DNA from: Puniceicoccales bacterium | GTDB lineage: Bacteria; Verrucomicrobiota; Verrucomicrobiia; Opitutales; LL51 | Assembly (NCBI GenBank): GCA_031270475.1 | Contig: JAISXO010000046.1 | Coordinates: forward strand, 1 to 44,350 | Direction: 5' to 3' | Length of the DNA: 44,350 bases | In this document: one piece after another, positions 5,129-21,568 of the stretch | Layout: every line of letters starts with the position of its first letter | How positions within the stretch are numbered: the stretch's first letter is position 1 | Notes under the pieces: generated by a model | Seen by the model: only the letters and a program-made list of their open reading frames with translations | The model's database searches: none | Told to the model about the DNA's origin: nothing | Position numbers and translations under genes: made by a program

Positions 5129-5190
5129 ACGTGCCGCTCGTTCTTACCCTCTACTTTTCAGCCTTGGAAGAAAAGTGAAAGCTGTCAAGT
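5129..5190 (-). promoter_or_regulatory. 62-bp dispersed promoter-leader element, copy A (TTGACA-N17-AAGGCT plus 31-nt G-rich leader), divergent from the pilin-like gene
   Basis: Aligns without gaps to 6184-6245(-), 18335-18396(+) and 21507-21568(+). Confidence 0.7.
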
Positions 5191-5241
5191 TGTTTCTGAA
5201 AAAATAATTTCCGAAAAATAAAAATATTTTGTATTTTCCAG

Positions 5242-5269
5242 TTGACACGATTTACGAAATCGCGATAAT
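5242..5269 (+). promoter_or_regulatory. Putative sigma70 promoter of the pilin-like gene (TTGACA-N16-GATAAT)
   Basis: TTGACA 5242-5247, GATAAT 5264-5269; the paralogous loci keep the -35 but have lost the -10 region. Confidence 0.6.
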
Positions 5270-5286
5270 CATTATATGGTTTATTT

Positions 5287-5381
5287 ACAATGCAACAATG
5301 CAACAATGCAACAATGCAACAATGCAACAATGCAACAATGCAACAATGCAACAATGCAACAATGCAACAATGCAACAATGC
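5287..5381 (+). repeat. Perfect 8-bp tandem repeat (ACAATGCA) x ~11.9 containing 12 ATGs
   Basis: Read directly from the sequence; overlaps the translation start of the pilin-like gene. Confidence 0.98.
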
Positions 5382-6161
5382 GTAAAAAGTAAAAGTAAAT
5401 CTTTTACGCTGATTGAGATCGTTTTTACGATTTCCATCATTGGTATTTTGTTAGCCATTTTATTGCCCGCAATGAGTGCCATCAAACTCAATGCGCAGAA
5501 AGTAAAAGATCAGTCGAATTTACGAAAAATCGCCGAGGCCTGGAAAACTTTTTATGTGGAAAAAGGTATAGGTCATATAGGATCTGGGGATTGTACTGCT
5601 CTGGATATGGTTGCATCTTATGCTGGTACTTGGTGGAAAGATGGGCCCGTGTTAATAAATGATCCTCACGTTTATGTTTCCTCGGCTGATCGTTACGCTT
5701 CTCCCGTTCTCGGAGAGTCCGTTCTTGGCGATTTTCCCGGTGGGTTCCAGGGTACGGCCTTCAAGGCGGTTAATAATTTTCTGACAGATGGTGAAAGCGT
5801 CGTATTTAGTTATTGCCTCATTGATCGAATTGAGATCAGTGTTCCCCTGGAAACAACACCCATTGCCTTTACCCGTGGACTCAAAGAAAATGGCCTTTGG
5901 GACGAAAAAGCAGGCCTTTATGGCGCGAAAGGAGGCTTTGTTGTTTTCGGGGACGGTCACATAAGCTGGTTCGATGGAAGTAAACCAGCAAAATTCCTGA
6001 AATGGGATGGGTCGGGTTATACGAATAACATTGTGGAAGCATTACCTGCTGCCGGATATGGATTCGATGGAGCTTACATTGGCGCTGGATTTTATTTGCC
6101 AAGCGACTTAGAGAGTGAGCAGGACGGTTCGCGGATTTTGCTTAATGTAAACTACACCTGA
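5370..6161 (+). CDS. Prepilin-type N-terminal cleavage/methylation domain protein (pilin/pseudopilin-like, PVC 'DGH' family); only intact member of its variable subfamily
   Basis: MQQCVKSKSKS|FTLIE, hydrophobic helix, TPIAFTRGL, FGDGH; in-frame ATGs at 5298, 5322, 5346 and 5370, so the true start is uncertain. Confidence 0.85.
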   Translation: MQQCVKSKSKSFTLIEIVFTISIIGILLAILLPAMSAIKLNAQKVKDQSNLRKIAEAWKTFYVEKGIGHIGSGDCTALDMVASYAGTWWKDGPVLINDPHVYVSSADRYASPVLGESVLGDFPGGFQGTAFKAVNNFLTDGESVVFSYCLIDRIEISVPLETTPIAFTRGLKENGLWDEKAGLYGAKGGFVVFGDGHISWFDGSKPAKFLKWDGSGYTNNIVEALPAAGYGFDGAYIGAGFYLPSDLESEQDGSRILLNVNYT

Positions 6162-6183
6162 TTTTACTTGGTGCGTAATTTTT

Positions 6184-19923: not shown

Positions 19924-19971
19924 AAATTTTAAATATTAATTTTTTTTGAAAACTAAACTATAGGGAGTGTC

Positions 19972-20052
19972 TTTTTGTACACCCGTAAGAGGCAAAGCCT
20001 CTTAAACTTTCTTTAGAAGGTTTTGCGGCAAAGCCGCACGGGTGTACAAAAA
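19972..20052. repeat. Four-way-junction palindromic element (same closing-stem family as 15062-15138)
   Basis: TTTTTGTACACCCGT/ACGGGTGTACAAAAA encloses AAGAGGC-AAA-GCCTCTT, AAACTTTC-TTTA-GAAGGTTT and GCGGC-AAA-GCCGC. Confidence 0.88.
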
Positions 20053-20137
20053 ACACCGAGCCGACGGTTCTTTTCTTTTAAATTCCGCACAAATTTTAAT
20101 TTACGCCTCGAATATTTTTTCAATCGTAGTAGGTAGC

Positions 20138-21466
20138 ATGGAAAATCGGGTATACATTAAGACCTATGGTTGCCAGATGAACGAGCGAGAATCGGAAGGA
20201 CTAGGGGCAATGCTAGAGGGGAACGGCTACGAGATTGTTAGCAACGAGCACAACGCGGACATCATACTTCTCAATACCTGTAGTGTAAGGGAGCAGGCGG
20301 AAATCAAGGCCATTGGGAAGTCTAATCTGATTGCTCGCAGTAAAAATCGGGAGAAATTGATCGGTATCATTGGTTGCATGGCGCAAAATTTAGGTGAAAA
20401 TTTATACAAAAAATCGCCTCCTACCCGTCTCATTGTGGGCCCTAACCGCATGGAAAAAATTCCAGAATATTTAGATCAACTCATTCATGACAAAGATCGA
20501 CGCATTACCGACATTGAAATGGGGCCAATTGGCCGACAACTTGCTGCGACTCACGATGAAAAAAAAGTAAGGGCATCGATGTTTGTCTCCATTATGCAAG
20601 GATGTAATATGCATTGCGCCTATTGTATTGTACCGAAAACCAGAGGGCCGGAACAATATCGTTCCATGGATGATATTATTGATGAAATCCGGTTACTAGC
20701 CGGACACAGGACCAAAGAGGTTACCTTACTGGGACAAATTGTCAACAATTATGGCACCCATCGAATGCCATTTGTAGATGGAAAAAGTCCATTTGTACAA
20801 CTTCTAGAAAAAATTCAACGGATTGACGGTATTAGTCGCATACGATTTATGTCGCCGCACCCCAAGGGATTCAGGGCAGATCTCATTGAGTCCTATGAAA
20901 AATTATCAAAACTTTGTCCCCACGTTCATCTTCCGCTGCAGAGCGGTTCCGATAAAATTCTCCGAACTATGGGACGCCCTTATCAGTGCGAGCAATTTTT
21001 ATCGATCGTTGCTGCGTTGAGGGAAAGAATTCCGACGATTTCCATTTCGACAGACATCATCGTTGGATTTCCGGGGGAGACGGAAGAAGATTTTCAAAGG
21101 ACCTGCGCCATTTTTGACCAGGTAAAATTTGACATGGCATTTATATTTAAGTATAGTATTCGGCCCGGAACGATTGCAGAACGATTGGGTGACCAAATTC
21201 CGCAAGAAATCAAAGAAGCACGCAATCAAATTTTACTTCAAAGGGTGGAACACTATTCCCGGCAATACAATGCATCCATGGCTGGAACCGTAAAAAAAGT
21301 TTTAGTAGAAGGTTTAGCCAAGCATGGAGAAAGGCAACTTGAAGGTTATACGCCGGAGCATAAAAAAGTGATTTTCGCTGGGACGGAAGACCTAATCGGA
21401 CAAATCGTCGACATTCGCATTGAAACCCATGGAACTTCGACCCTTTCAGGGAAAATAGTTGAATAA
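20138..21466 (+). CDS. miaB: tRNA-2-methylthio-N6-dimethylallyladenosine synthase
   Basis: TYGCQMN, NTCSVRE, CNMHCAYC radical-SAM motif, C-terminal TRAM domain; ATG at 20138. Confidence 0.96.
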   Translation: MENRVYIKTYGCQMNERESEGLGAMLEGNGYEIVSNEHNADIILLNTCSVREQAEIKAIGKSNLIARSKNREKLIGIIGCMAQNLGENLYKKSPPTRLIVGPNRMEKIPEYLDQLIHDKDRRITDIEMGPIGRQLAATHDEKKVRASMFVSIMQGCNMHCAYCIVPKTRGPEQYRSMDDIIDEIRLLAGHRTKEVTLLGQIVNNYGTHRMPFVDGKSPFVQLLEKIQRIDGISRIRFMSPHPKGFRADLIESYEKLSKLCPHVHLPLQSGSDKILRTMGRPYQCEQFLSIVAALRERIPTISISTDIIVGFPGETEEDFQRTCAIFDQVKFDMAFIFKYSIRPGTIAERLGDQIPQEIKEARNQILLQRVEHYSRQYNASMAGTVKKVLVEGLAKHGERQLEGYTPEHKKVIFAGTEDLIGQIVDIRIETHGTSTLSGKIVE

Positions 21467-21506
21467 AATTTTATAATATTTTTTTACTAAATTCAACTAA
21501 AATGGT

Positions 21507-21568
21507 ACTTGCCAAGTGGCGATTTTTTTTCGGGGCTAGAAGATAAAGGGTGGGAGTAAGCGGCACGT
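21507..21568 (+). promoter_or_regulatory. 62-bp promoter-leader element, copy D; solo copy with no pilin gene, between convergent miaB and dxs
   Basis: TTGCCA-N17-GGGGCT plus AGAAGATAAAGGGTGGGAGTAAGCGGCACGT. Confidence 0.6.

Follow-up and report, generated by a model that had tools for sequence, protein, structure and literature searches.

A genus-restricted, promoter-like intergenic module recurs throughout a Puniceicoccales genome and borders one subfamily of its pilin-like genes

Several described systems combine a promoter with recombination or mobility. In Neisseria, according to the available part of the source, the promoter of a small RNA (sRNA) lies upstream of pilE, oriented opposite to it, its transcript starts inside a sequence that forms a G-quadruplex (G4), and the sRNA acts only in cis, with its direction mattering (PMC3547852). 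Putative mobile promoters (PMPs) are similar non-coding sequences with promoter features found upstream of unrelated genes in one genome; they have no link with any known mobile element, how they move is unknown, they occur mostly as pairs, and they are defined upstream of genes only. Correia elements, ERIC and REP/REPIN are likewise repeat classes that carry promoters (PMC3575422). Here we analyze a 44,350-nucleotide (nt) stretch of a Puniceicoccales bacterium (GenBank assembly GCA_031270475.1, contig JAISXO010000046.1, positions 1 to 44,350; hereafter the window), which is contig C8 of a 967,924-base, 55-contig assembly rated 93% complete. It carries four copies, A to D, of a short element in which a promoter-like half precedes a G-rich tract, several of them beside pilin-like genes; an earlier reading of the letters (hereafter the sequence-only reading) had proposed a recombination-initiating or regulatory sRNA for that gene family.

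We found that this module has multiplied and been homogenized within the genome, that it occupies any type of intergenic interval in either orientation, and that it is not the native promoter of at least one gene behind it. The account we favor, and consider reasonably probable, is that the four stretches belong to a genus-specific, self-propagating promoter-like module homogenized by recombination, and are not a pilin-specific switch. On this account the module would be a primary-sigma promoter with a conserved initial transcribed sequence, whose minimal -10 (nAGGCT) would retain just the A and the final T; each member of one pilin-like subfamily is packaged as element, own promoter, gene and element, with both elements antisense; and such packages are gained or lost exactly at copies, probably via ordinary RecA-type recombination between repeats. 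To the four copies we add here pilin statistics, cassette gain and loss, flank swaps, the genus-wide distribution and evidence of concerted evolution.

The copies, and the pilin-like genes that they flank, lie in the window as follows:
5129..5190, minus strand: copy A, with -35 TTGACA at 5183-5188, 17-bp spacer at 5166-5182, hexamer AAGGCT at 5160-5165, 7 variable nt at 5153-5159 and G-rich core at 5129-5152
6184..6245, minus strand: copy B, with -35 TTAACA at 6238-6243, spacer at 6221-6237, hexamer CAGGCT at 6215-6220 and core at 6184-6207
18335..18396, plus strand: copy C, with -35 TTGACA at 18337-18342, spacer at 18343-18359, hexamer AAGACT at 18360-18365, variable stretch at 18366-18372 and core at 18373-18396, followed by A5T5 at 18397-18406
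21507..21568, plus strand: copy D, with -35 TTGCCA at 21509-21514, hexamer GGGGCT at 21532-21537 and core at 21545-21568
35335..35378, minus strand: decayed partial copy, with worn -35 and hexamer and no G-rich core
5229..6161, plus strand: pilin-like gene bracketed by copies A and B, with an N-terminal methylation motif
17301..18260, minus strand: truncated pilin-like gene, lying divergently to copy C and open for 71 codons from the FALVE motif

The four copies align without gaps over ~80 nt, with a mean column identity of 74% including flanks. A block pattern (TTGACA, 17+1 N, A, 3 N, T, 10 N, GGGNGGGAG, with at most 3 mismatches) matches the window at exactly copies A to D, where 0.36 matches are expected, and none of 100 dinucleotide-preserving shuffles of the window reached four matches. 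When searched against the whole genome, a profile built from the four copies gave 48 matches at E<=1e-3, and after one iteration 53 copies at E<=1e-3 and 57 at E<=1e-2; 53 copies in 0.97 Mb amount to about one per 18 kb. We found no description of a repeat matching this module in the literature, as far as searched. Breaks between contigs fall within element copies as well as within the conserved 5' part of pilin-like genes (C18:1-125 and C54:1-125 at contig starts, C53:1-130 and C54:18450-18576 at contig ends), indicating that these repeats limit the assembly, and real copy numbers may be higher than those counted.

Each module spans ~75 bp and consists of an A-tract, TTGACA, a 17-bp spacer, nAGGCT, ~7 variable nt, a 24-nt G-rich block, an A-run and a T-run. 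In the column profile, the A-tract gives way to ACTTGACA, which is nearly invariant, and then to 17 low-information columns that carry 0.0-0.9 bits each; the -35 columns (10-15) are conserved at 95-100%, the hexamer reads cAAGGCT with its second A at 96% and its final T at 100%, and the G-rich block (AGAGGGTGGGAGCAAGCGGCATGT in copy C, window 18373-18396) is followed by one variable base before the A-run and T-run. Copy by copy, TTGACA is exact in 46 of this genome's 53 copies, while hexamer position 2 is A in 48/53 and position 6 is T in 50/53. Between the first T of TTGACA and the hexamer's last T the distance measures 29 nt in 45/53 copies of this genome and in 131 of the 142 copies taken from seven relatives, and the spacer is exactly 17 bp in 176 of the 183 scorable copies across eight genomes; the 19 copies that deviate from 29 nt comprise five at 28, one at 30, one that is misaligned and 12 without one end. 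Three short variants lack the 15 nt between two AGG motifs, so that the hexamer is joined directly to the second half of the block.

These results allow the structural part of the sequence-only reading to be assessed. Its four gap-free copies were correctly placed and oriented, and its block layout (hexamer, 17-nt spacer, NAGGCT-like hexamer, G-rich tract) generalizes across the family. The sigma-70-type promoter signature that it recognized, consisting of the -35, the fixed 17-bp spacing and two key -10 bases, is well supported by the counts above, and would predict transcription from the module. Its freely varying spacer holds insofar as single columns carry almost no information and the spacer is the least constrained part of the module, but spacers nevertheless form subfamilies, with a majority form that differs genome by genome. 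The decayed fifth copy that it placed at ~35335-35375 does retain a worn promoter half, but is without the G-rich tract and has a profile E above 0.01; we recognize it because of its position in the upstream architecture shared by pilin-like loci.

Next, we asked how the module is distributed and constrained among relatives (labeled G001 and so on where they must be told apart). BLAST with copy C detected the element in 5/13 congeners, while the more sensitive block pattern gave 6-45 matches in 11 of 14 genus members; it was absent from the remaining three (G002, G005, G006) and from 3/3 sister-genus genomes, and a reversed control pattern gave 0-1 matches. Across a 121-genome sample of the order, this genome showed 29 matches and one congener 14, with 0-1, a chance level, in all others. 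We then compared 25 same-position pairs, each made up of an own copy and a copy of a relative that have at least one unambiguously orthologous flank in common, and calculated for each part the fraction of differing positions:
-35: 0.08 in same-position pairs, 0.10 in random between-genome pairs
Spacer: 0.56 in same-position pairs, 0.63 in random between-genome pairs
Hexamer: 0.18 in same-position pairs, 0.20 in random between-genome pairs
7-nt stretch: 0.45 in same-position pairs, 0.52 in random between-genome pairs
Core: 0.15 in same-position pairs, 0.20 in random between-genome pairs

The three blocks are not more alike within a genome than between genomes (identity 0.91 vs. 0.89 for the -35, 0.83 vs. 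0.83 for the hexamer, 0.82 vs. 0.78 for the core), whereas the corresponding within- vs. between-genome values are 0.51 vs. 0.38 for the spacer and 0.61 vs. 0.50 for the 7-nt stretch. Spacer identity between same-position copies is 0.44, lower than the 0.51 between random copies of one genome. Because same-position spacers are less alike than spacers within one genome, the family appears to have been homogenized or replaced in each lineage, with the three blocks constrained family-wide. This block constraint may serve the cell or the element's own spread.

The genomic context of the copies was analyzed on crude open reading frame (ORF) calls of at least 80 aa, resolved greedily, which may have misassigned some contexts. 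In 32/53 cases the next gene downstream of the element is convergent, and in 21/53 it lies on the same strand (two-sided binomial p 0.17), with copies that face a convergent gene lying just past its stop (median ~50 nt). A copy is present in 24 of the 513 tandem intergenic intervals, in 4 of the 142 divergent and in 11 of the 145 convergent ones; copies are not enriched where promoters are needed, and are also present where no gene can be served. Downstream genes on the same strand include lysS, aspS, rpsA, tsaE, lpxI and genes for a lipoate/biotin ligase, HIT, ABC ATPases, aminotransferases, MFS and DUF805 proteins, and convergent neighbors include dxs, gyrB, atpA and an M42 peptidase gene. 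Convergent-facing copies are as intact as gene-facing ones, as seen in the exact -35 (28/32 vs. 18/21), the hexamer A (29/32 vs. 19/21) and T (30/32 vs. 20/21), and the core matches (20.6/24 vs. 20.7/24).

Two of the same-strand genes show how the module relates to the promoters behind it. A conserved upstream region and leader stand directly before rpsA in 12/12 genomes with a usable match, while the element is an extra farther upstream in only two of these (this genome and G010), which rules it out as the native rpsA promoter. Similarly, in G003, lysS directly follows the MiaB-like gene without an element, which argues against the module as native lysS promoter, and by eye a second promoter-like site can be seen between copy C and the lysS start. 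Given the conserved rpsA upstream region and the element-free lysS of G003, we read the module as an intergenic add-on and not as the ancestral promoter of the genes behind it.

The same intergenic regions hold further features. The ~110 nt directly before rpsA, conserved in 12/12 genomes with a usable match, include a TTAACC..CCTCCC motif preceded by a long A/T-rich palindrome, and are probably the native promoter plus an S1 autoregulatory leader. GC-rich nested palindromic repeats occur upstream of rpsA in G011, G007 and G013, and also in G008. In G001, several copies are followed by the same ~100-nt stretch and the start of a multi-copy gene whose product begins MSALDKIW, so that the module heads another paralogous gene family there.

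The context of the copies also bears on whether the module is a promoter at all. It could act as a DNA or RNA site that a protein recognizes or that is read from the opposite strand, such as a C-rich, unstructured Rho-loading stretch after convergent genes, an insulator or the operator of a global regulator. The position of 32/53 copies just past the stop of a convergent gene would fit such a role, as would the C-rich opposite strand, which is less folded than shuffles (z +0.4), the presence of Rho in the genome and a hexamer that makes a poor -10. Neither a Rho site nor an operator, however, predicts an invariant TTGACA, an exact 17-bp spacing and a hexamer conserved only at its A and T; the orientation of neighboring genes is unbiased, and the module has no palindrome or half-site symmetry. 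We consider a non-promoter site unlikely.

Only two genes of the sigma-70 family were found in the genome, one RpoD-sized and one ECF (extracytoplasmic function). The G-rich block starts at about the predicted +1, and general promoter knowledge suggests that, with an A-tract and perfect -35 ahead of a G+C-rich hexamer and G-rich start, polymerase would be bound well while opening or escape would be difficult. Our best guess is that the G-rich block sets promoter escape or the 5'-end properties of every module transcript. Sigma-54 promoters carry GG and GC elements in GG-N10-GC spacing, and ECF promoters have AAC and CGT 16-17 bp apart; in the column profile, the position of the -12 GC after GGCACG is TT, and no AAC lies 16-17 nt before CGT, so that we rejected both as readings of the G-rich block. 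A six-codon mini-ORF (GTG ... TAA) in the block was also rejected, as its stop column is variable (A in 45%), its main variable site falls on a second codon position, and the GTG is absent from one subfamily. Recruitment of an ops/RfaH-like factor was set aside as well, with a single NusG-family gene found in the genome.

The transcript itself could instead be what is conserved, with the copies forming a family of trans-acting small RNAs with a G-rich 5' end in common. A conserved 5' block followed by variable sequence, the large number of copies, and an A-run/T-run that might be a processing site are in keeping with this. The predicted RNAs, however, show no fold signal (43 copies; mean z -0.13 for the predicted transcript, +0.42 for the opposite strand) and no terminator hairpins were seen, so that hairpin, terminator and inverted-repeat readings were dropped for both strands; no Rfam family was found in the window at gathering score, nor at E<=1 around copy C; neither Hfq nor CsrA was found in the 93%-complete genome; and the first half of the block is deleted in the three short variants. 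A trans-acting family is, in our estimate, very improbable.

We next turned to the pilin-like genes. A six-frame motif scan found 17 prepilin-type N-termini in the genome, ~10 of which make up a single subfamily whose leader and N-terminal helix are nearly identical. Ten aligned loci of this subfamily share a common layout, which runs from an antisense element through ~55 bp of A/T-rich DNA, the gene's own TTGACA-16-GATAAT promoter, a start region of 8-nt repeats whose unit is locus-specific, and the gene to a second antisense element shortly past its stop. All 12 elements within 350 bp of a subfamily gene lie on the opposite strand, the 5' copies being back-to-back with the pilin promoter. 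Intervals that flank the subfamily contain an element in 10 of 16 cases, compared with 29 of 784 other intervals (Fisher's exact test, odds ratio 43, p 1.5e-10), a p value that overstates independence because the pilin loci are paralogues carrying the element along. The association is real, orientation-regular and confined to this one subfamily, which accounts for 12/53 copies and leaves 41/53 elsewhere: other prepilin-type genes, including three at 29874..32024, have no copy, and a pilin-like relative from a different genome has none within 1.5 kb. A wider protein search in the species genomes found the pilin-like protein at two loci only, both from one relative. In one pilin-like gene the nearest paralogue changes between the conserved 5' part and the body, a pattern that could stem from gene conversion by silent donor copies or equally from N-terminal purifying selection or assembly overlap.

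Within the window, copy A aims into the 3' end of an ABC-ATPase gene (4271..5074, plus strand) and away from the pilin-like gene 5229..6161, while copy B begins 23 nt past the stop of that gene and runs antisense into its 3' end. Copy C is divergent from the truncated pilin-like gene (N-terminus ~18229, minus strand) and lies 61-70 nt upstream of lysS (18466..19923). Copy D, in which the key hexamer A is lost, sits between a MiaB-like gene (20042..21466, plus strand) and the convergent dxs (21605..23401, minus strand), with no pilin-like gene near, and the decayed copy is upstream of, and divergent from, a pilin-like remnant that starts at ~35430. The pilin-like gene 5229..6161 has its own TTGACA-16-GATAAT promoter at 5242-5269, and its ATG start codons fall inside an array (5287-5381) of 11.9 copies of a perfect 8-nt repeat (100% matches). 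Paralogues carry other 8-nt units at the same place (~11 copies in contig C44, ~3 in C54, ~2 in C20), a pattern that fits phase variation by repeat number.

Two pilin-like remnants, at ~18229-18277 (minus strand) and ~35420-35440 (plus strand), both lack the same ~29-nt stretch, which holds the -10 and start codon of intact paralogues, suggesting that promoter-less, start-less copies were duplicated after the loss; the second remnant, at ~35430-36003, is open for 176 codons. The only tyrosine recombinase gene found in the assembly (window 28628-29545, minus strand) stands beside the three classical prepilin-type genes at 29874..32024, and probably encodes an Xer-type chromosome resolvase.

With these data we can weigh the proposal that the element is a pilin-dedicated cis sRNA, initiating or regulating recombination or expression of the pilin-like family. 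The enrichment beside the subfamily, the antisense or divergent arrangement in 12/12 cases and the architecture common to all subfamily loci speak in its favor, as does a geometry that resembles the pilE G4 sRNA as described in the available part of the source (PMC3547852). Most copies, however, are not beside the subfamily, those by lysS, aspS, rpsA, tsaE, gyrB, atpA and dxs are equally conserved, and some pilin-like and prepilin-type genes have no copy. The G4 is missing as well: four tracts of three or more G with loops of 1-7 occur in 0/51 copies, two G3 runs in 30/52, and the mean G4Hunter score is 1.09. We judge a pilin-dedicated sRNA very improbable.

Accordingly, the functional part of the sequence-only reading fares less well than its structural part. 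It correctly had A and C directed away from a neighboring pilin-like gene and B antisense into one, and it rightly claimed no canonical G4. Its tie to pilin-like loci stands as an enrichment with regular orientation but not as a general rule, given the many copies elsewhere and a copy D that has no pilin-like gene nearby; the genome-wide motif scan that it suggested finds enrichment beside one subfamily and no copies at other prepilin-type genes. The Neisseria analogy retains its divergent geometry and G-rich start, and loses the G4 and the restriction to pilin loci. The recombination-initiating or regulatory sRNA is not supported as proposed, and plain recombination suffices, as the comparison with relatives indicates.

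In that comparison, several loci differ exactly at copies of the element. Between the ABC-ATPase and helix-turn-helix genes, where the window has copy A, the pilin-like gene and copy B, G010 has a single element, whose positional equivalent is copy B because the short flank past B is common to both. Where contig C44 has element, gene and element, the pilin-like gene is missing from G009, which has two elements in tandem. The number of tandem copies at one site varies by species, with one copy vs. three, and at lysS one vs. two (the two in tandem in G009). Several relatives' copies join an upstream flank orthologous to one own locus with a downstream flank orthologous to another: the window has the MiaB-like gene, D and dxs in order, while G009 and G010 have the MiaB-like gene, an element and another gene, and elsewhere another gene, an element and dxs. 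The copies that follow the MiaB-like gene in both relatives have better-preserved hexamers than D. At the place of dxs in this genome, G009 (C33) has, beyond the element and ~300 nt past the MiaB-like gene, a sequence that resembles the 5' end of a transfer-messenger RNA gene and carries a promoter-like site of its own.

Homologous exchange between copies is the simplest account of both cassette gain and loss and flank swaps. RecA is present, and the tyrosine recombinase noted above (window 28673-29155) was the only one found. A serine invertase or shufflon-type site and retro-mobility were both rejected, as neither a serine recombinase nor a reverse transcriptase was found in the 93%-complete assembly; more generally, no candidate mobilizing enzyme was found in a search that did not cover transposase families exhaustively. 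Since plain homologous recombination explains the element-bounded gain and loss of pilin-like genes and the changes in gene order, neither an sRNA nor a G4 is needed.

A related possibility is that transcription itself drives the recombination. Firing through the G-rich non-template tract would open the DNA as an R-loop or weak G-structure, stimulating gene conversion and ectopic exchange; the module, selfish or domesticated, would thereby spread and be homogenized, with movement of the pilin-like cassette and reshuffled gene order as side effects, making it a G4-less relative of the pilE system. Promoter blocks and a G-rich start that stay conserved whatever the neighboring genes would be explained on this view, which also fits the within-genome homogenization, the cassette gain and loss and the flank swaps at copies. 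The G over C skew of the tract on the non-template strand (+0.54) makes an R-loop-prone start possible, and the divergent geometry at pilin loci is as in the available part of PMC3547852. Yet no copy has the four-tract G4 motif, as noted, and any 75-bp repeat with a near-identical ~30-bp block would recombine unaided. The genome (contigs C1-C55, <1 Mb) also contains 52 tandem repeats of period 80-381 bp, mostly of 2-3 copies with 88-98% identity; the element is in just 3/52 of these arrays and is hence no driver of such long-period duplications, which are a separate genome-wide process. Transcription-driven recombination thus seems to us improbable, if worth keeping in view.

We return to the reading that we favor, a self-propagating promoter-like module homogenized by recombination. 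Besides the crude gene models and the paralogy of the pilin loci, several points weigh against it. The hexamer matches TATAAT at only 2/6 positions (A2 and T6), its middle GGC being G+C-rich, and a generic sigma-70 scanner calls the pilin promoter but none of the four copies. The promoter reading leaves unexplained why 24 nt past the start are conserved like the -35, and why copies in convergent intervals, where they serve no gene, are intact. No target duplication or terminal inverted repeats that would show how a copy reaches a new site were seen. Finally, relatives were compared at element-centered loci, so that the share of synteny breaks at elements comes without a genome-wide baseline.

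How the module compares with described systems can now be stated more closely. It shares with the Neisseria pilE G4/gar sRNA an opposite-strand promoter upstream of a pilin gene, a G-rich start and a variable pilin family; pilE, as far as the available parts of the sources describe it, is a single locus with a true four-tract G4 and proven cis gene conversion from silent copies (PMC3547852, PMC13463697). In the present module, by contrast, no copy has four G3 tracts, most copies are far from pilin-like genes, and the evidence comes from sequence.

PMPs, reportedly described by Matus-Garcia, Nijveen and van Passel in 2012, offer a second comparison. Among own copies, 84 of 1354 pairs have at least 80% identity over at least 50 aligned positions, and 11 of 205 gene-facing pairs reach 80%, with unrelated downstream genes (lysS, aspS, rpsA, tsaE, lpxI and others), as is characteristic of PMPs. 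The module differs in its ~53 copies per Mb, 60% of which aim at convergent genes, in block constraint that includes the 24 nt past the predicted start, and in its genus-wide presence and within-genome homogenization. Correia, ERIC and REP elements have palindromic or terminal inverted repeats, and target duplications or a dedicated transposase. Like these, the module is a short multicopy intergenic repeat with promoter features that lies at gene borders and rearrangement points, but it has no inverted repeats, fold or edge duplication, and no mobilizing enzyme was found for it. Multicopy families under concerted evolution, such as the spacer promoters of ribosomal DNA, offer a further parallel, in that functional blocks are kept between species while less constrained parts are alike within a genome only; the module's copies, unlike those promoters, are dispersed single units by unrelated genes and do not form one tandem array.

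If our reading is correct, a 1-Mb genome with few regulators would carry ~50 near-identical polymerase entry sites, over half of them facing gene ends, which would raise the role of pervasive antisense or orphan transcription in reduced genomes. The block-wise conservation would provide a natural dataset on promoter positions, including the 24 nt past the start, in an uncultured lineage of Verrucomicrobia. Were transcription-driven recombination true instead, the module would be the counterpart, spread over the genome and lacking a G4, of the single G4/sRNA device at pilE, and phase-variable pilin-like cassettes bounded by copies would be explained. Under the reading favored here, the element would mark the sites of insertion or loss of genes for pilin-like surface proteins and of changes in gene order, and would give a handle on surface variation and genome rearrangement without recognizable mobile-element enzymes.

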